From: Candidatus Poribacteria bacterium
GTDB taxonomy: Bacteria > Poribacteria > WGA-4E > PCPOR2b
DNA: 64,000 nucleotides
Assembly: GCA_965207975.1 (NCBI GenBank)
Contig: OZ242315.1
Span: 4,106,449-4,170,448 of the forward strand
Reading direction: 5' to 3'
Part shown: positions 1,893 through 9,377 of the stretch, piece by piece
How positions within the stretch are numbered: position 1 is the stretch's first letter
Layout of the letters: every line of letters begins with the position of its first letter
Made by a program: the position numbers and the translations under genes
Notes under the pieces: model-generated
Told to the model about the DNA's origin: nothing
The model's database searches: none
What the model saw: the letters and a program-made list of their open reading frames with translations, nothing else

Positions 1893-2003
1893 TAGCCCAA
1901 ATTTCACGGAAAGCGAACGGGAGAAGAATTGGCGTATCGCCACAGAGATTTCTCCTGTAACGCTCAGACCGCATATACAAATTCTGCACATGAGCAGGGC
2001 AAG

Positions 2004-2026
2004 TAATTGACGTATATTGTCAATTA
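2004..2026. promoter_or_regulatory. Perfect 8-bp inverted repeat TAATTGAC-N7-GTCAATTA, an operator-like palindrome about 165 bp upstream of the ariA-like gene
   Basis: Read directly: taattgac gtatatt gtcaatta. It lies in an AT-rich non-coding stretch (1893-2189) at the left edge of the low-GC cassette. Confidence 0.4.
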
Positions 2027-2189
2027 ACACCATTATCCTTAGGTTGAAATTCGGGTAAAATAAGTGTATCATTATAAGCATATTGTATGTTCGCAGATTA
2101 AGCAAAGCCTATGCTTAGCAGTGTCCTTTGTCGACACATAGCGCGAACCTGCTCTAAATTGCTTTATCATTAGTGGTGCATTTCTTGAG

Positions 2190-3578
2190 GTGATAACAAT
2201 GCGGATTACAGAAGTAGTCGCTGAAGGTCTGTTTGGAATATTTGACCATACGATATCGTTGAATGCTGAAGAGCGTATAACAATTATTCACGGTCCAAAT
2301 GGTTTTGGAAAAACAATTTTACTACAGATGCTTAACGGCTTATTTAACAGTAGATTTACACAATTTCGTAGCATCCCTTTTCGTAAATTTGAGATTCGAT
2401 TTGAGGAAGGAAGTGCAATATGGATTGATGAAATATCTGAGTCCAGCACTCAACAAATGATTTTATGGGATAATCTGGATCCCGATGATAGTGCGACTGA
2501 AAAACGTGCACATCTGCCAAAGGCACCTATCGTCATCAACTTTTTGGAGAACAGTGGACAAACAGATTCCTTCATCTTAGGACAGATCAATGAAGATGTG
2601 ACTCCTTTGTCAATAATAGAGGAGGTAACAGGCTTAGAACGGATAGAAGCTAGGCAATGGATAACCGACGATGGTGAGATTCTATATCTTGATGAAGTTA
2701 TAGATCGTTTTGGATCTCGTTTGCCATTCAGGCTTAAAGAACCAGGTTGGTGGATTCAAATTAAAGAATCAACCAAAATTCATCTCATTGAAACGCAACG
2801 ACTATTGAATGTTTCTAGTCGAAGAGTGACCAGAAATAGGTTTGTTCACAGCAGACCGCCGATGATAACATGGGTGCCAACTGTCAAAGAATATTCAAAG
2901 GAGTTAGCCGAAAAAATTCAAGAAAAACTGGCAGAATCGGCGGCTTTATCTCAATCGTTGGACAGAACATTTCCAGCTCGGTTAGTACAACAGATGGGAC
3001 ATTCTGAACTTACCGAAGATCAAATTAAAAACAAACTAGACGAACTGGAAGAGAAACGTTCTAGACTCGAGGAGGTCGGGCTTTTAGATAAAGAACAAGA
3101 TATGGATCTGCCAATCCAACAAATCAGTAAAAACACAGAGGAAGTTTTATCTGTTTACGTTCAAGATGTAGAGGAAAAACTAAGTGTGCTTGATGAAATT
3201 ACGAATAAAATTGATCTTTTCAAGCAAATCATAAATGAACGCTTCCGATACAATAGAATGACGATTTCGAGACAAGAAGGATTTTCTTTTTTGACTAGAG
3301 GCGATAAGCCTCTTCCTGTAACCTCGTTATCTTCTGGCGAACAACATGAATTAGTTCTGTTGTACCAATTGCTATTCAAAGTACGCCCTAATTCTCTCAT
3401 CCTTATCGACGAACCTGAACTCTCATTACATGTCGCATGGCAGCAACAATTTCTACAAGATCTACAAGAAATAACTCAACTTGCTTCCTTTGATGTGCTC
3501 ATCGCTACCCATTCACCTCAAATTATTCATGATCGCTGGGATTTGACAGTTGAATTGAAAGGACCAGAGATCGCATGA
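2190..3578 (+). CDS. ariA: PARIS-like AriA: ABC-type (AAA_15/AAA_21, OLD/SMC-like) ATPase with a coiled-coil insert
   Basis: Walker A GPNGFGKT near the N-terminus, ABC signature LSSGEQ, Walker B LILIDEPE, H-loop ATHSPQ. A coiled-coil-like middle region lies between them (KLDELEEKRSRLEE...). RBS gaggtg upstream. GC is clearly lower than flanking genes. It overlaps the next gene by 4 bp (ATGA). Confidence 0.65.
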   Translation: MITMRITEVVAEGLFGIFDHTISLNAEERITIIHGPNGFGKTILLQMLNGLFNSRFTQFRSIPFRKFEIRFEEGSAIWIDEISESSTQQMILWDNLDPDDSATEKRAHLPKAPIVINFLENSGQTDSFILGQINEDVTPLSIIEEVTGLERIEARQWITDDGEILYLDEVIDRFGSRLPFRLKEPGWWIQIKESTKIHLIETQRLLNVSSRRVTRNRFVHSRPPMITWVPTVKEYSKELAEKIQEKLAESAALSQSLDRTFPARLVQQMGHSELTEDQIKNKLDELEEKRSRLEEVGLLDKEQDMDLPIQQISKNTEEVLSVYVQDVEEKLSVLDEITNKIDLFKQIINERFRYNRMTISRQEGFSFLTRGDKPLPVTSLSSGEQHELVLLYQLLFKVRPNSLILIDEPELSLHVAWQQQFLQDLQEITQLASFDVLIATHSPQIIHDRWDLTVELKGPEIA

Positions 3579-4450
3579 AGGAGGAAATCAAAGCGAATCA
3601 CCTCGCCAACGAAATCCGGATGACTCGCACTCAATTCCGAGGAAGTTTCTTGATTGTTGAAGGTCAAACTGCTGATTTCCGAGTTTACAAGCGTCTTGTT
3701 GACCCTAAGCAGACTAAAATTATACCAGCACATAACAAGGATAGAGCACTAGCAGCACTCCAAATTCTCGAAAACGCTGACTTTGATGGAGTTGTGGCCA
3801 TCGTTGACGCTGATTTCTGGCGACTTGAGGGAGTAGAGCCGGCGAGTCCAAATCTGTTTATAACTGATACACATGACTTAGAAACGATGCTTCTTGAGTC
3901 TCCTTCATTAGATAAATTACTTGACGAATTTGGTTCTGAACAAAAAATGACCAACTTCACCGCAAACAGTAAAATGGAGGTCCGCCAAGCCTTACTGGCT
4001 GCTGCTCGTCCAATCGGGTACTTAAGATGGGCTTCTCAACGAGACAATCTTTCTCTGACGTTTGAAGGGATTATTTTCAGTCGATTTATTGATCATAATA
4101 CACTGCATATTGATAGCAGTGAACTGATTCGAGAAGTTAAGAACAAGTCGCGCAGGCACGATCTCAGCGAAAGCGGTTTGCAGGATAAAATTGATGAACT
4201 CACAGATTCAAAACACAATTCTTGGGACATCTGCTGTGGGCATGATTTAGTCAGTATTCTGTCGTTTGGTTTGTACAGGGTTTTAGGTTCAAACCAGCGT
4301 AGAGAAGTCGAACCGGAGGTACTTGAGAAATTTCTGCGAGCCGGGTATGAATCCACCTATTTCTTATCAACTCAACTCTACCAGTTGCTACGAGGATGGG
4401 AAGCTTCCAACCTACCGTTTCGGATCTTCTCAACGGAACAGCGAGTATAG
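3575..4450 (+). CDS. ariB: PARIS-like AriB: DUF4435/Toprim (OLD-family nuclease-like) effector
   Basis: Toprim-like conserved acidic motifs: LIVEGQTADF (EG glutamate) and VVAIVDADF (DxD). The ~290 aa size and the position immediately after an ABC ATPase with a start/stop overlap match the split-OLD architecture of PARIS. No homology search was run. Confidence 0.6.
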   Translation: MKEEIKANHLANEIRMTRTQFRGSFLIVEGQTADFRVYKRLVDPKQTKIIPAHNKDRALAALQILENADFDGVVAIVDADFWRLEGVEPASPNLFITDTHDLETMLLESPSLDKLLDEFGSEQKMTNFTANSKMEVRQALLAAARPIGYLRWASQRDNLSLTFEGIIFSRFIDHNTLHIDSSELIREVKNKSRRHDLSESGLQDKIDELTDSKHNSWDICCGHDLVSILSFGLYRVLGSNQRREVEPEVLEKFLRAGYESTYFLSTQLYQLLRGWEASNLPFRIFSTEQRV

Positions 4451-4505
4451 AACTTACGCAGCAACAGCACTGCCTACTCGATCTAACTTTTGTGCCAGAG
4501 GGAAG

Positions 4506-4565
4506 AGTGAGTGACTGACCAGTTGCAATTGATTGACAATTAACCGCTCTACCACTCACTTTTTT
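4506..4565 (+). terminator. Hairpin (stem agtgagtg/cactcact with a long structured loop) followed by a T6 tract; putative terminator after the ariB-like gene
   Basis: Stem 4506-4513 pairs with 4553-4560, followed by T-run 4560-4565. The loop contains the right-hand copy of the cassette-flanking repeat GATTGACAATTAACC (4531-4545). Confidence 0.35.
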
Positions 4566-4593
4566 GGAAAGCGAAGATATAATTGAGGGGCGT

Positions 4594-5747: not shown

Positions 5748-5957
5748 TCATTCTTCCTCGTGTGCCTGCTGAATCTGATTTGCGAGCGTTTCGACATCTG
5801 GTGCGGTAAGCCATTGATGTCGATCCACGGAGTAATTACCTTTTCCTGTCTCGTACTGATGGAGAAAACGGATCATGCCAGCAGGCCCAAGTTTACTCAA
5901 GAGTGCTTCAATACCGAGTTCATGAATCTGATTCGCTGTCAGGTCTCGTATGTTCAT
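5748..5957 (-). CDS. Small hypothetical protein (69 aa, or 42 aa from Met28), putative partner/antitoxin of the upstream PIN protein
   Basis: This ORF overlaps the 3' end of the PIN gene by 38 nt in a different frame. No recognisable family. The start codon is uncertain. Confidence 0.3.
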   Translation of the reverse strand: MNIRDLTANQIHELGIEALLSKLGPAGMIRFLHQYETGKGNYSVDRHQWLTAPDVETLANQIQQAHEEE

Positions 5958-6507
5958 TCTCAGTTACCTCCTGTAACCAGGTGAGTGGGTTTTCGACACG
6001 GCTGTGAAGTTGCGAGCTGATCCTTTTTGCTTTTCTTAGCATTTGATCATCCGTTGTTAAAAGCAAATCCACATTACCGCTTTCGGCGCAGGCGAGATGC
6101 AAAGCATCAAACGGCTTGAACCCCAACGATTCAAGGTGTTTGCCTCTTAATGTCTCCGTTGTGCCAACAGAAATCACTCGATGAACGTAATTTAATAGAA
6201 ATTTGACTTGAAGACGTTGTCTCAAATCAAGGTTTTGGTTGGCTTCAAACGTAGAAACTTCACTAGAAATCCATTCCCATTGCCCTGCGTAAAAATGCTC
6301 GATAATCAGCACGATAGCTTCAGTTTCAAGACGAATTCGAGGCTGTGTCTGATCATCAAAAGGACGACTCAAACAACAATTGTCTAGATAGATTTTCCAA
6401 CGTTTCAATATCGCTTGCATTCGTTGAACTTCTACACTGCTTTCTTCAAAATCGTTAAGGGATTCTTGAATGCCGATGATTTTCTCACAATCGCTACCGA
6501 ATTTCAA
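5920..6507 (-). CDS. PIN-domain protein (putative VapC-like RNase/toxin) with a ~35 aa N-terminal extension
   Basis: IYLDNCCL resembles the PIN N-terminal motif with a conserved Asp. It is followed by a Glu-containing helix (ETEAIVLIIE) and the C-terminal FDALHLACAE...DLLLTTDD acidic motifs typical of PIN. Confidence 0.55.
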   Translation of the reverse strand: MKFGSDCEKIIGIQESLNDFEESSVEVQRMQAILKRWKIYLDNCCLSRPFDDQTQPRIRLETEAIVLIIEHFYAGQWEWISSEVSTFEANQNLDLRQRLQVKFLLNYVHRVISVGTTETLRGKHLESLGFKPFDALHLACAESGNVDLLLTTDDQMLRKAKRISSQLHSRVENPLTWLQEVTENEHTRPDSESDS

Positions 6508-6545
6508 GCATTTTTTAATTCAAGCGACTCCTTGCAGGGTTGAGA

Positions 6546-6728
6546 TTAAAGATCCGCATCAAATCGATAAACCGGTTCCCAACCTAGCAGCTTTTCTGTC
6601 CGTGCCACGTCCCCTTTTTTATAACCGCCCGATGTGGCAAATATATAAAAGCAATCGTAGCTAATATCCGGTGACTCTAGGGCGCATTTCAGGGCAGATG
6701 CAACATCCCGTCTATCAATCGAGCCATA
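6546..6728 (-). pseudogene. C-terminal fragment (60 aa) of an NAD-dependent epimerase/dehydratase gene split by IS insertion
   Basis: Manual translation of the minus strand gives YGSIDRRDVASALKCALESPDISYDCFYIFATSGGYKKGDVARTEKLLGWEPVYRFDADL*. It ends in the classic epimerase C-terminal LGWEP motif. It continues the reading sense of the 180-aa N-terminal fragment at 7648-8190 (..PVNGFY | GSIDRRDVA..). Confidence 0.6.
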
Positions 6729-7652
6729 ATAACCTTTGGTGCTATTTTAGAGAGTGAATTGAGCGATAGATAAAGGTACAAATCCATCGTTATTAGTTGG
6801 CAATCCGTCCCATTGGACCAAAAGATTAAACAGAGCCATAGTGAAAGCAAGGCGAGTTTTGAAATAAGCCCAACATCGATGTGTCACTTTCTTCAAATGA
6901 CACACCCCCGTCAACATAGATAAGATGGTCTCTATCAGCATCCTATCGTTCCATTGTCCACGGGGACATATACGCAAGTTTGAAGGGTGCCAATCGCCTT
7001 TGGCAAACCCTTCATCAGCAAAGACCACCATCTGGTCACTCACATTATCAACGATATGTTGAAAATGGCTTCCATCGTAAACATTGGCAGTGGCACAATC
7101 CCAGTCCACAATCAGTCCCAAGTGGTTGACCAACACACACAGTTTGCCCCCGACAATCCATCGTTGGTTGGATATGCCTTTTTTGCCGACTTGTTGTTCA
7201 GAACGACCTTCTCGACGGGGATGAATCAGTTCAATACCATAAGTATCAATCACTCCTATCAATGAGGGATTTGCCATGAACATATCCGTCAGATGGTGAT
7301 GCCTGTTGAACAATCGGAACAGGCGGGTTCTTTCGGGTAAATTGGGAAACAGCGACTTATAGTTGTTTTCTATCCAACGATAGAATGCACGGTTGCCAAC
7401 ACCTTTGAGGGCAAATAGCAAGGCGATGGTAACCACTTCAGACGGATAGAGATTGGCTTTGGTATGCTTCTGGTTCTTATTTGCTTGTGTGAGTTTATCA
7501 TCTACTCGACAGAACAATTGTGTGATAAAATCTATAGTGGTCATGAGCTTTGGTTCCTCCCGTTAATCGAGTTTGGTTGATTACCCCGATTAACGATAGA
7601 AGTGAGGATACCGGCTCATGACCTACAAATTATACTAGCACCATTGGTTAAT
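6729..7652 (-). mobile_element. IS element (about 924 bp) of the IS982/IS5-like DDE family inserted into the epimerase gene
   Basis: Imperfect terminal inverted repeats: aataacctttggtgcta (6729-6745) versus the reverse complement of 7636-7652 (attaaccaatggtgcta), 14/17 matched. The stop codon of the truncated epimerase lies inside the right IR. The transposase ORF lies inside. Confidence 0.55.
6747..7544 (-). CDS. DDE transposase (IS982/IS5-like family), 265 aa
   Basis: The N-terminal FCRVDDKL motif and the VIDTYGIEL...DWD...DEGF pattern are typical of IS982/IS4-IS5 superfamily DDE transposases. The architecture is similar to the second transposase at 8537-9358. Confidence 0.6.
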   Translation of the reverse strand: MTTIDFITQLFCRVDDKLTQANKNQKHTKANLYPSEVVTIALLFALKGVGNRAFYRWIENNYKSLFPNLPERTRLFRLFNRHHHLTDMFMANPSLIGVIDTYGIELIHPRREGRSEQQVGKKGISNQRWIVGGKLCVLVNHLGLIVDWDCATANVYDGSHFQHIVDNVSDQMVVFADEGFAKGDWHPSNLRICPRGQWNDRMLIETILSMLTGVCHLKKVTHRCWAYFKTRLAFTMALFNLLVQWDGLPTNNDGFVPLSIAQFTL

Positions 7653-8190
7653 AGAAACCGTTGACAGGATGACCATCAGTCGTAACCATTTGATCTGAAT
7701 CGATGATGCCCCACGGTCGGATACACGCGATAGAAAGACCGTATTGTTCATGATAATTTCGGGCGAGTTCTTCTTGCACTAGCTTAGAAAGATCATAGGA
7801 GCTAGCGGCTTTGAGTGGGTATAGATCGTACGTGAGAAAAGTGTCTTCCGGATAGCCACCATGGACCGCCCCACTGGAGGTATGGACGAATCGCTGGATT
7901 TCGCATACACGGGCAGCTTCAAGGAGATTAAACATACCCCGCACGTTAATATCAAAACCCGGGCCCTCCATGCCGTAACTGCCATTAGGTGCCATAATCG
8001 TATTCACAACCGCATCATGACCAGCCATTACGGCTTCAAGCGTTGTATAGTCAAGCACATCCCCTTGAACGGTGTTATCGTAACCCTCCACCGGGCGAAT
8101 GTCGAAGGCAGTCACGTCATGGTCTTGGCTCAAGATATTGACCGCTGCGCGTCCCACAAAGCCGGCTGCGCCTGTCAACAGTATTTTCAT
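7648..8190 (-). pseudogene. N-terminal fragment (180 aa) of an NAD-dependent epimerase/dehydratase, truncated by IS insertion
   Basis: Rossmann motif MKILLTGAAGFVGRA, catalytic YDLSK (YxxxK). The protein stops at a TAA contributed by the IS right inverted repeat. The C-terminal remainder is found at 6546-6728. Confidence 0.65.
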
Positions 8191-8452
8191 AATTGTAGCC
8201 CCTTCAGTTTATGTGATGAGTTATCAATGAAAAGATACAATATCTATTTACACCCTACATATTTCAATTTTGTCTGACACATTATTGTTTAGAACCCCTC
8301 GACTTGTCAAGAGGTTCACCGATGAGGTCATTGAGAAGCATAATTTTTCCATTGACGCTACATTGAATCATCCGTATTATAGACACCTTGAGGTGGAAGC
8401 CTTATGGTGCATGGGATGTTTCCCTATATGTGTTGAACGAAATTCAATAGAT

Positions 8453-9377
8453 TAACGCAAGTTGCTAGTTGAATATCCATGGAATTTCCGTTAGAGTATT
8501 TGTGTTCTAAACAAAACTCATCAACAGGAGAATTCCATGGACTTAGTAATCGTAGCATTTTATACACTTTGTGACGATCTGTTAATTCAACACCACTACC
8601 AAGATGACCCCCGAACCCAAATGTCCGCCGCTGAAGTCATGACGACGGCACTCGTGGCTGCCCAACTGTTCGGTGGCAATCAACAGATGGCACGGTGTCT
8701 ACTCAAGGAGCAGGGATATATTCCCCATATGCTCAGTAAGGCACGATTCAATCGAAGACTCCATCAAATTGCACCGATGTTTCAGACACTTTTTGAATCA
8801 CTTGCCACAGACTGTAAAGCACAAAACTCAGACCAACTCTATATCATCGACTCGTATCCCGTGCCAGTGTGTGATGTGATTCGCATCTCTAGTGCAAAAT
8901 TTTATCAAGGGGAAGTCTGGCGCGGGATGATAGCCAGTAAACGGAGATACTTCTATGGACTCAAACTGCATCTGATGGTCACCGAGTCTGGCATACCGGT
9001 TGAGTTTTTCTTAACACCGGGCAGTTTTAGTGATGTTCAAGGGTTGCGGTGTTATCCGTTTGATTTACCTCAAGGGGCAACCATTTATGCAGATAAAGCC
9101 TACTGCAATTATGGGATTGAAGATGCCTTAGCTGAAGCCGGTATCATGCTCAAACCGTTGCGAAAAAAGAACAGCAAACGGCAATATCAAGCCCACGAAG
9201 TTTACATACACCATCACCACAGGAAGCGGATAGAGGTGACAAACAGTTTAATCACCCAACGGCTACCCCGCTCTATTCATGCCGTGACTGCCGATGGGTT
9301 TGAGATTAAGATTATTTTGTTTCTCATTGCTACTATGATTACACTTATCATTAAATAAACACTAGCAACTTGCGTTA
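8453..9377 (+). mobile_element. IS982-family-like insertion sequence (925 bp) with 17-bp perfect terminal inverted repeats
   Basis: Left IR TAACGCAAGTTGCTAGT (8453-8469). Right end 9361-9377 is its exact reverse complement (actagcaacttgcgtta). GAT is present on both flanks (8450-8452 and 9378-9380) and may be a 3-bp TSD. It contains one transposase ORF ending 3 nt before the right IR. Confidence 0.65.
8537..9358 (+). CDS. IS982-family-like DDE transposase, 273 aa
   Basis: The N-terminal FYTLCDDLL and IIDSYPVPVC motifs and the DDE-type spacing match. RBS aggaga lies before the ATG. Confidence 0.6.
   Translation: MDLVIVAFYTLCDDLLIQHHYQDDPRTQMSAAEVMTTALVAAQLFGGNQQMARCLLKEQGYIPHMLSKARFNRRLHQIAPMFQTLFESLATDCKAQNSDQLYIIDSYPVPVCDVIRISSAKFYQGEVWRGMIASKRRYFYGLKLHLMVTESGIPVEFFLTPGSFSDVQGLRCYPFDLPQGATIYADKAYCNYGIEDALAEAGIMLKPLRKKNSKRQYQAHEVYIHHHHRKRIEVTNSLITQRLPRSIHAVTADGFEIKIILFLIATMITLIIK

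Follow-up and report, generated by a model that had tools for sequence, protein, structure and literature searches.

A probably functional PARIS defence operon in a variable intergenic slot of a Candidatus Poribacteria chromosome

The window analysed here is a 64,000-nucleotide (nt) stretch of a Candidatus Poribacteria chromosome (contig OZ242315.1 of assembly GCA_965207975.1), and its interval 2199-4450 very probably constitutes a functional two-gene defence operon of the phage anti-restriction-induced system (PARIS). By every sequence- and fold-based criterion tested, the gene pair, ariA-ariB, is PARIS, and it is an ordinary member of that family rather than a new kind. The operon is an accessory element that sits in a single, constant intergenic slot flanked by convergent housekeeping genes, present in some close relatives and absent from others. 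These statements draw on the structure of the genes, on the family to which sequence and fold assign them, on the conservation of catalytic residues, and on evidence of purifying selection, presence/absence polymorphism and mosaicism.

Gene structure and family assignment

Two co-directional open reading frames (ORFs) lie on the plus strand, the first running from 2190 (GTG) or 2199 (ATG) to 3578 and the second from 3575 to 4450. An earlier reading of the same DNA from its letters (hereafter the sequence-only reading) had paired 2190-3578 with 3575-4450. Both ORFs exist, but the start of ariA is most likely the ATG at 2199, since a Shine-Dalgarno-like GAGGTGAT stands 5' of it (2187-2194, plus strand) and the corresponding ATG is where the orthologous genes are called to begin. 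The Shine-Dalgarno-like string is conserved in the orthologous loci L001, L002 and L025. On the evidence of Pfam, PADLOC, a PDB profile search and Foldseek, ariA (2199-3578) encodes a 459-residue ABC ATPase that is of the AAA_15/AAA_21 type and bears a coiled-coil insertion, and ariB (3575-4450) encodes a 291-residue protein that is, by homology, a DUF4435/Toprim nuclease. The 4-nt overlap (ATGA, 3575-3578) from which translational coupling had been proposed is real. All of the motifs quoted earlier were also found in place. Numbered from the ATG, they are GPNGFGKT (residues 32-39, with the Walker A K38), the signature LSSGEQ (377-382), LILIDEPE (400-407, with the Walker B D404-E405) and ATHSPQ (436-441, with the H-loop H438) in AriA, and IVEGQTAD (27-34) and VDADFW (77-82) in AriB.

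The MacSyFinder rule of Rousset et al. (2022) defines PARIS by adjacent genes, one matching AAA_15 at >=32 bits or AAA_21 at >=27 bits and the other matching DUF4435 at >=27 bits (PMC9122126). In Pfam, the ariA product matched AAA_15 at 73.5 bits (3e-20) and AAA_21 at 72.7 bits (7e-20), the ariB product matched DUF4435 at 55.9 bits (7e-15), and the two genes adjoin with their 4-nt overlap, so this original rule detects the cassette. The sequence-only reading had staked its proposal on a DUF4435 match and an ABC-ATPase match, and both were found. In PADLOC, the best model for the first protein was AriA (PDLC04164, 4e-25) and that for the second was AriB (PDLC02983, 8e-27, 92.9 bits, covering model positions 1-234 of 236). 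The second protein matched strongly only the AriB and AriAB models, the third match being DruH3 at E = 0.03, and it matched none of the HNH, OLD-Toprim, RloB and helicase models in Pfam and PADLOC. The OLD-type Toprim domain PF20469 was matched by neither ORF in Pfam. An exact-sequence lookup in the contig index found no identical copy of the window AriB on record.

Searched against PDB, a 42-sequence AriA profile placed E. coli AriA (8ux9_B) at 2e-24 and PtuA at 1e-10, 14 orders of magnitude apart. The AlphaFold2 models of AriA and AriB had predicted local distance difference test (pLDDT) scores of 77 and 95, respectively. When the AriA model was compared with PDB by Foldseek, ranks 1-15 were all E. 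coli AriA chains (E 6e-17 to 4e-13). The only significant neighbours of the AriB model were the E. coli AriB chains 8v46_D and 8ux9_A (probability 1.0, template modelling score 0.55-0.57, full length, 13-14% identity), with the next PDB neighbour at E = 0.04. The predicted folds of both subunits match those of the solved E. coli PARIS subunits, which were the top PDB neighbours in the structural comparison that the sequence-only reading had called for. The proposed organisation, an AriA ABC ATPase with an AriB DUF4435/Toprim protein, was borne out by Pfam and PADLOC, by sequence search of PDB and by comparison of folds.

The additional suggestion of a divergent or previously uncatalogued PARIS variant did not survive, as standard rules detect the cassette. 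E. coli AriB residues 5-298 (PDB 8ux9_A) were rebuilt from an alignment, being reached through a Pseudoalteromonas homologue. This sequence gave no Pfam DUF4435 match at E <= 1 and only 34.9 bits with the PADLOC AriB model, whereas the window AriB scored 55.9 and 92.9 bits with the same two models. Because the window protein scores higher than the E. coli prototype, the window pair is not a divergent outlier; judged by these model scores, it is the prototype AriB that is a sequence outlier within its own family.

The E. coli system requires K39 and E393 of AriA and E26, D30, D88, E90 and E122 of AriB (PMC11464382). The AriA counterparts by alignment to 8ux9_B, K38 and E405, were invariant across 42 homologues, as were D404 and the signature LSSGEQ of 377-382, and the AriB counterparts, E29, D34, D78, D80 and E103, were invariant across 57 sequences. 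AriB G30 and D101 were invariant as well, and K55 was invariant in one alignment (A2) and conserved to at least 90% in another (A1). The AriB motifs of E. coli and the window correspond one-to-one (LLVEGRHD/LIVEGQTAD, CDREF/VDADF and GHSLEN/THDLET), and hhalign also paired THDLET with GHSLEN, with weak statistics.

Occupied and empty sites

The GC content of the cassette is 0.408, against a median of 0.491 for the window. By gene, it is 0.388 for ariA and 0.437 for ariB, compared with 0.51-0.53 for the flanking genes, which bears out the earlier remark that the cassette is more AT-rich than its neighbours. No other 2.25-kb stretch in the entire window has a lower GC content, and equally low values were seen in just 0.8% of sliding windows, every one of which overlaps the cassette. 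At distant loci, the GC content of the cassette was 4-20 points under that of its surroundings in all 14 of the 14 loci measured.

The related loci belong to metagenome-assembled genomes of Candidatus Poribacteria, which is also the host here. Synteny was identical in five other genomes (loci L001/L003, L002, L004, L025 and L026), in the order RraA-like gene, gene for a 489-residue protein, ariA-ariB and convergent aldo-keto reductase gene, and the intergenic DNA flanking the cassette is orthologous and alignable among the occupied genomes. In L103, a related Poribacteria genome, the two flanking genes stand 112 nt apart (7468-7579) and ariAB is absent; an empty site in a related genome, which the sequence-only reading had proposed to look for, was thereby found. 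The 112-nt gap contains a perfect bidirectional terminator hairpin, AAAGAGACCGAGTTTTTG-CC-AAAAACTCGGTCTCT, and is unrelated to the occupied intergenic DNA. Local alignments of the window and of L004 with L103 delimited a variable segment, 1903-4593, which is present in the occupied genomes and replaced by the unrelated 112 nt in L103. Homology between the occupied and empty alleles ends about 10 nt past the stop of the upstream gene (~1903) and picks up again precisely where the reductase gene has its stop codon (4594). The junction alignments revealed no repeat common to the cassette flanks and the empty site of L103.

In the tree of flanking genes, L103 was sister to the occupied L004; therefore, presence of the cassette is polymorphic within the clade. 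The polymorphism arose either by loss or by allele replacement through flanking homology. Homologues of the upstream gene at 83%, 72% and 69% identity were considered as further empty-site candidates and rejected, as they lie in other genomic contexts. A scan of JGI metagenomes with the upstream protein gave 71 loci at no more than 76% identity, none of them syntenic with the aldo-keto reductase gene and none with AriAB; lacking that synteny, these loci are uninformative as empty sites.

Close homologues of the pair occur in about eight phyla, archaea included, and ariA lies immediately 5' of ariB in 22 of 22 related loci. Roughly 50 alleles from Poribacteria were found. Outside that phylum, the hosts of the pair include Anaerolineae, cyanobacteria, Nitrospirae, Planctomycetales, Myxococcota, Desulfobacterota and Methanosarcinales archaea, with AriB identities of 29-61%. 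The phage database held no AriB match, and matches in plasmid records did not exceed 30% identity; close relatives were found in neither phage nor plasmid records. Given the low GC content, the empty allele in L103 and the close homologues across about eight phyla, a horizontal origin of the cassette is well supported, in agreement with the acquisition proposed earlier.

Mosaic history and variable loops of AriA

Compared with their orthologues, the flanking genes showed synonymous divergence (dS) of 0.35-0.58 and ratios of nonsynonymous to synonymous divergence (dN/dS) of 0.03-0.10. The dS of ariA was 0.16-0.23 to L001, L002 and L004 and 0.55 to L025, and that of ariB was 0.40-0.54 to L001, L002 and L004 and 0.16-0.23 to L025 and L026. 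That is, ariA is closer than the flanks to L001, L002 and L004, where ariB has diverged as much as the flanks; L025 shows the reverse, and ariB is likewise close in L026. Sliding nucleotide identity displayed the same mosaic. Since the two genes differ in recent history, the pattern implies recombination breakpoints within the ariA-ariB operon and points to shuffling of its alleles by homologous recombination. The dN/dS values were 0.11-0.22 for AriA and 0.24-0.43 for AriB, indicating purifying selection on both, which argues that both genes are functional. At locus L026 (6626-7747), ariA was called at only 373 residues, ending 250 nt before an intact ariB; this short ariA reflects either a frameshift or pseudogene, or else an error in the long-read assembly.

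Conservation, nucleotide identity and pLDDT all mark a hypervariable patch in AriA at residues 76-135 (2424-2603, plus strand). Distant homologues showed conservation of 0.04-0.18 across the patch and close homologues 0.38-0.57, and nucleotide identity to L025 was just 50-53% over 2400-2624, which spans it. Together with the mosaic identity, this variability points to recombination inside the cassette. Within the patch, residues 80-107 had a pLDDT below 50 and are predicted to form a disordered acidic loop (6 D/E, 2 K/R). A second variable loop, residues 208-219 (RRVTRNRFVHSR, window 2820-2855), is strongly basic. In the profile alignment, residues 76-135 lie opposite the region of E. coli AriA that holds R116 and R119, the trigger-binding pore arginines (PMC11464382), and they are a candidate for the trigger-sensing surface and for the trigger-specificity region of this AriA clade.

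Repeats, palindrome, promoter and terminator candidates

The sequence-only reading had the cassette bounded by imperfect direct repeats matching at 13/16 positions (2016-2031, plus strand, and 4532-4547) and preceded by a perfect operator-like palindrome, TAATTGAC-N7-GTCAATTA (2004-2026). Both strings exist, but the roles proposed for them are not supported. When the flanks were aligned with the empty site, the junctions were placed at ~1903 and ~4594 and not at the repeats (2016 and 4532); repeats and palindrome fall within the variable segment, at a distance of 60-110 nt from where the occupied and empty alleles truly part, and the downstream repeat copy lies in the loop of a hairpin at 4503-4565. 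Matches of 13/16 or better between the two intergenic regions arose in 40 of 300 shuffles (13%), and in a repeat search the direct repeat ranked 16th of 40 similar short repeat families; we judge it a chance match. Of 5000 shuffles of the upstream region, 285 (5.7%) produced a perfect 8+8 inverted repeat with a spacer of 0-12, the window contains 41 such repeats, and the palindrome is probably fortuitous. Although the surrounding DNA aligns, the repeat pair was not kept at the orthologous positions in L001, L002 and L025, nor was the palindrome in the four loci read (L001, L002, L004 and L025). The reading of the repeats as an insertion scar was rejected on junction mapping, shuffles and non-conservation, and that of the palindrome as an operator on shuffles and non-conservation.

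The best candidate promoter of the operon is the putative TTGAAA-17-TATCAT at 2044-2072 (plus strand), which matches the consensus at 10/12 positions and whose block, ggttgaaattcgggtaaaataagtgtatcatt, is conserved in the orthologues. In two genomes the ariA leader carries an insert that aligns at about window position 2078, just 3' of the conserved -10-like element. The insert of L002 is ~350 nt long (~8250-8600) and holds repeated gctccagaggagcgcaatgt-like units, and that of L025 is ~100 nt long (~6480-6580); both may be elements resembling miniature inverted-repeat transposable elements. At the other end of the operon, a long hairpin (GAGTGAGTG ... CACTCAC) followed by TTTTTT at 4503-4565 (plus strand) is a plausible terminator. 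Its minimum free energy of -21.8 kcal/mol (z = -1.5) is not significant alone. L001, L002 and L025 retain both the arms of the stem and the T-run; in L004 the T-run is interrupted.

Neighbouring genes

The proposal that the cassette sits in a mini defence island was an overstatement, because the neighbours have no PADLOC matches and are housekeeping genes, a PIN/small-ORF pair and insertion sequence (IS) elements. Scans of the whole window returned no Rfam families and no tRNA genes. The upstream 489-residue protein (423-1892) has no Pfam domain and belongs to a large uncharacterised family: its homologues at E <1e-50 number nearly 8000 and come from Poribacteria, Planctomycetota, Armatimonadota and other groups. 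On the minus strand at 5748-6507, a 69-residue ORF overlaps a 195-residue PIN-domain ORF as a toxin-antitoxin-like pair without a PADLOC match. The window, L002 and L026 carry this pair, whereas L001, L025 and L103 lack it, and its site is a second variable slot on the far side of the aldo-keto reductase gene. An NAD-dependent epimerase gene (6549-8190) is split by an IS with a DDE_Tnp_1_3 transposase (6747-7544, minus strand) into an N-terminal part (8190-7651) and a C-terminal part (6821-6549); it is intact, at 240 residues, in L002, L025, L026 and L103. A second, unrelated IS (8537-9358, with a 273-residue DDE_Tnp_1/DDE_Tnp_1_3 transposase) lies between the epimerase and adh_short genes and is absent from the orthologous loci. 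The window holds no further copies of either IS.

Discussion

In PARIS, an AriA homohexamer sequesters three AriB, and a trigger (Ocr or Ptr1/2) frees AriB in an ATP-dependent manner. The freed AriB dimer cleaves specific tRNAs, which in E. coli are tRNA-Lys, tRNA-Thr and tRNA-Asn, and the infection ends as an abortive one. Publications on the PARIS of E. coli B185 are Rousset (2022), Burman (2024), Deep (2024) and Belukhina (2025), and its structures are PDB 8UX9 and 8V45-8V49. Oligomeric state, trigger, RNA target and abortive-infection outcome are here carried over from that system by homology. On this model, the AriA of the window, an ABC ATPase with a coiled-coil insertion, would assemble into an oligomeric scaffold on which the Toprim nuclease AriB is kept inactive. 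Binding of a phage protein to AriA would depend on ATP and probably take place at its variable disordered loops, namely residues 80-107 and the basic loop of residues 208-219. The freed AriB would then dimerise and cut host RNA, most likely specific tRNAs, whereupon translation would halt and the infection would abort. RNA is a likely substrate because the Toprim RNase M5 resembles AriB in its catalytic site and is the closest structural homologue reported for it (PMC12409363). RNase M5, which is likened to AriB through that report, differs in being a housekeeping monomer without an ATPase partner.

Features common to the window operon and its E. coli B185 counterpart are the adjacency and translational coupling of the two genes, an ABC ATPase bearing a coiled-coil insertion (459 residues in the window, 464 in E. 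coli), a DUF4435/Toprim effector of ~300 residues, the Walker A Lys, the Walker B Glu and the five acidic Toprim residues, and poorly conserved disordered loops in AriA. The E. coli chains are also the best structural match in PDB for the window AriA and AriB models. The two systems differ in that their proteins are only 13-17% identical and in that the window pair occupies a chromosomal intergenic slot, whereas that of E. coli resides in a P4-satellite or P2-prophage hotspot. The main variable loop of AriA is acidic in the window and Arg-rich in E. coli, and the Toprim motif is DxD (D78, D80) in the former and DxE (D88, E90) in the latter.

Judged by its ATPase alone, the pair could belong to another defence family with an AAA_15/21 ATPase (Septu/retron PtuAB, Gabija, class-1 OLD, AbiL or MADS3-4) and only resemble PARIS. 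PtuA models approach AriA in PADLOC (6e-23 vs 4e-25), PtuA models and structures are the second-best matches of the window AriA, and the ATPase is common to these families (PMC11464382). PtuA/PtuB of Septu and retrons likewise combine an AAA_15/21 ABC ATPase bearing a coiled-coil insertion with a nuclease partner. The partner encoded in the window, however, is DUF4435/Toprim and not HNH, resembles strongly AriB and AriAB models only (DruH3 following at E = 0.03, with HNH, OLD-Toprim, RloB and helicase models unmatched), and has AriB as its only significant fold match; a reverse transcriptase and msr-msd are lacking. AriA itself is parted from PtuA by the 14 orders of magnitude in the profile search and by fold rank, and the variable segment holds no third gene. 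An ABC ATPase together with a Toprim nuclease is also found in nucleases of the OLD family (P2 Old, class 1) and in GajA of Gabija (class 2), and PARIS is classified as class 4 of OLD-like systems (PMC11464382). In class-1 OLD and Gabija, the ATPase is fused to an OLD-type Toprim (PF20469), and Gabija adds a UvrD-like helicase, whereas the window has two separate ORFs, DUF4435 in place of PF20469 and no helicase in the 2.7-kb variable segment. Assignment to one of these other families is largely refuted, and we regard it as highly unlikely.

That the pair is a chromosomal housekeeping or addiction module and not a defence against phages, for instance an ATPase-regulated Toprim RNase for RNA processing or a toxin-antitoxin-like pair, would accord with the constant place that it holds on the chromosome in six or more Poribacteria genomes, purifying selection, the absence of adjoining mobile-element genes and the deposition of AriA as an 'antitoxin' in PDB entries 8v45-8v49. 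We nevertheless consider it improbable, as the close relative L103 does without the cassette, the GC content is anomalous in every host measured, the distribution across phyla is patchy, and a dN/dS above that of the flanking genes together with a hypervariable surface loop are hallmarks of defence genes. Least probable is that the cassette inserted recently as a mobile unit, with the 16-nt direct repeats (as a target-site duplication or att-like sites) marking its ends and the palindromic operator controlling it. This explanation could invoke the existence of both strings and the three matches of the pattern ATTGWCAATTAAC in the window, where 0.28 would be expected, but it is refuted by junction mapping (~1903 and ~4594, not 2016 and 4547, with no repeat common to the empty site). 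Repeat and palindrome are, moreover, at chance level (13% and 5.7% of shuffles) and not conserved at the orthologous loci, and no integrase, transposase or regulator gene lies within the segment.

Several points weigh against the reading of the pair as a functional PARIS operon. The evidence for the window homologue comes from sequence and predicted fold, not from experiment. Neither phmmer with AriB nor a 27-sequence family profile found E. coli AriB among the PDB sequences, and it was for this reason that the link to the PDB AriB needed the fold search; a Rouxiella plasmid DUF4435 protein, tried as a bridge to E. coli AriB, likewise had no match to the PDB AriB. The hhalign comparison of the E. 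coli-side AriB clade with the window AriB clade gave a weak local match of 76 columns. With only 13-14% identity to the sole characterised AriB and no sequence link to it, the residue mapping of AriB relies on motif order, co-linear hidden Markov model coordinates and fold, not on superposition. No mobile-element, tRNA or restriction-modification/BREX genes adjoin the cassette. Finally, the trigger may differ in kind, because the most variable AriA loop is acidic, unlike the basic Ocr-binding pore loops of E. coli.

A broader interpretation joins these strands, and we offer it tentatively, as possible but rather doubtful. The pair would represent the mainstream DUF4435 PARIS clade, spread over bacteria and archaea, experimentally unstudied and 13-14% identical to E. 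coli AriB. It would sense a different class of phage trigger through the acidic, hypervariable and recombining loop of residues 80-107 and the basic loop of residues 208-219, the target of its AriB would differ from the E. coli tRNA-Lys/Thr/Asn set, and the mosaicism within the cassette among Poribacteria would record a continuing arms race with the phages of this uncultured phylum.

Since PARIS occurs in about 5% of prokaryotic genomes (PMC9122126), one more copy is in itself routine annotation, and only the population-genetic pattern and the status of the prototype AriB as a family outlier go beyond it. The operon puts a defence system of uncultured Candidatus Poribacteria on record, along with a clean pair of occupied and empty alleles and recombination within the operon, and it marks AriA residues 76-135 as a candidate trigger-specificity region for this PARIS clade. 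Because the only characterised AriB is a sequence outlier of its family, conclusions on trigger loops and tRNA specificity drawn from it may not transfer directly to the bulk of DUF4435-type PARIS.

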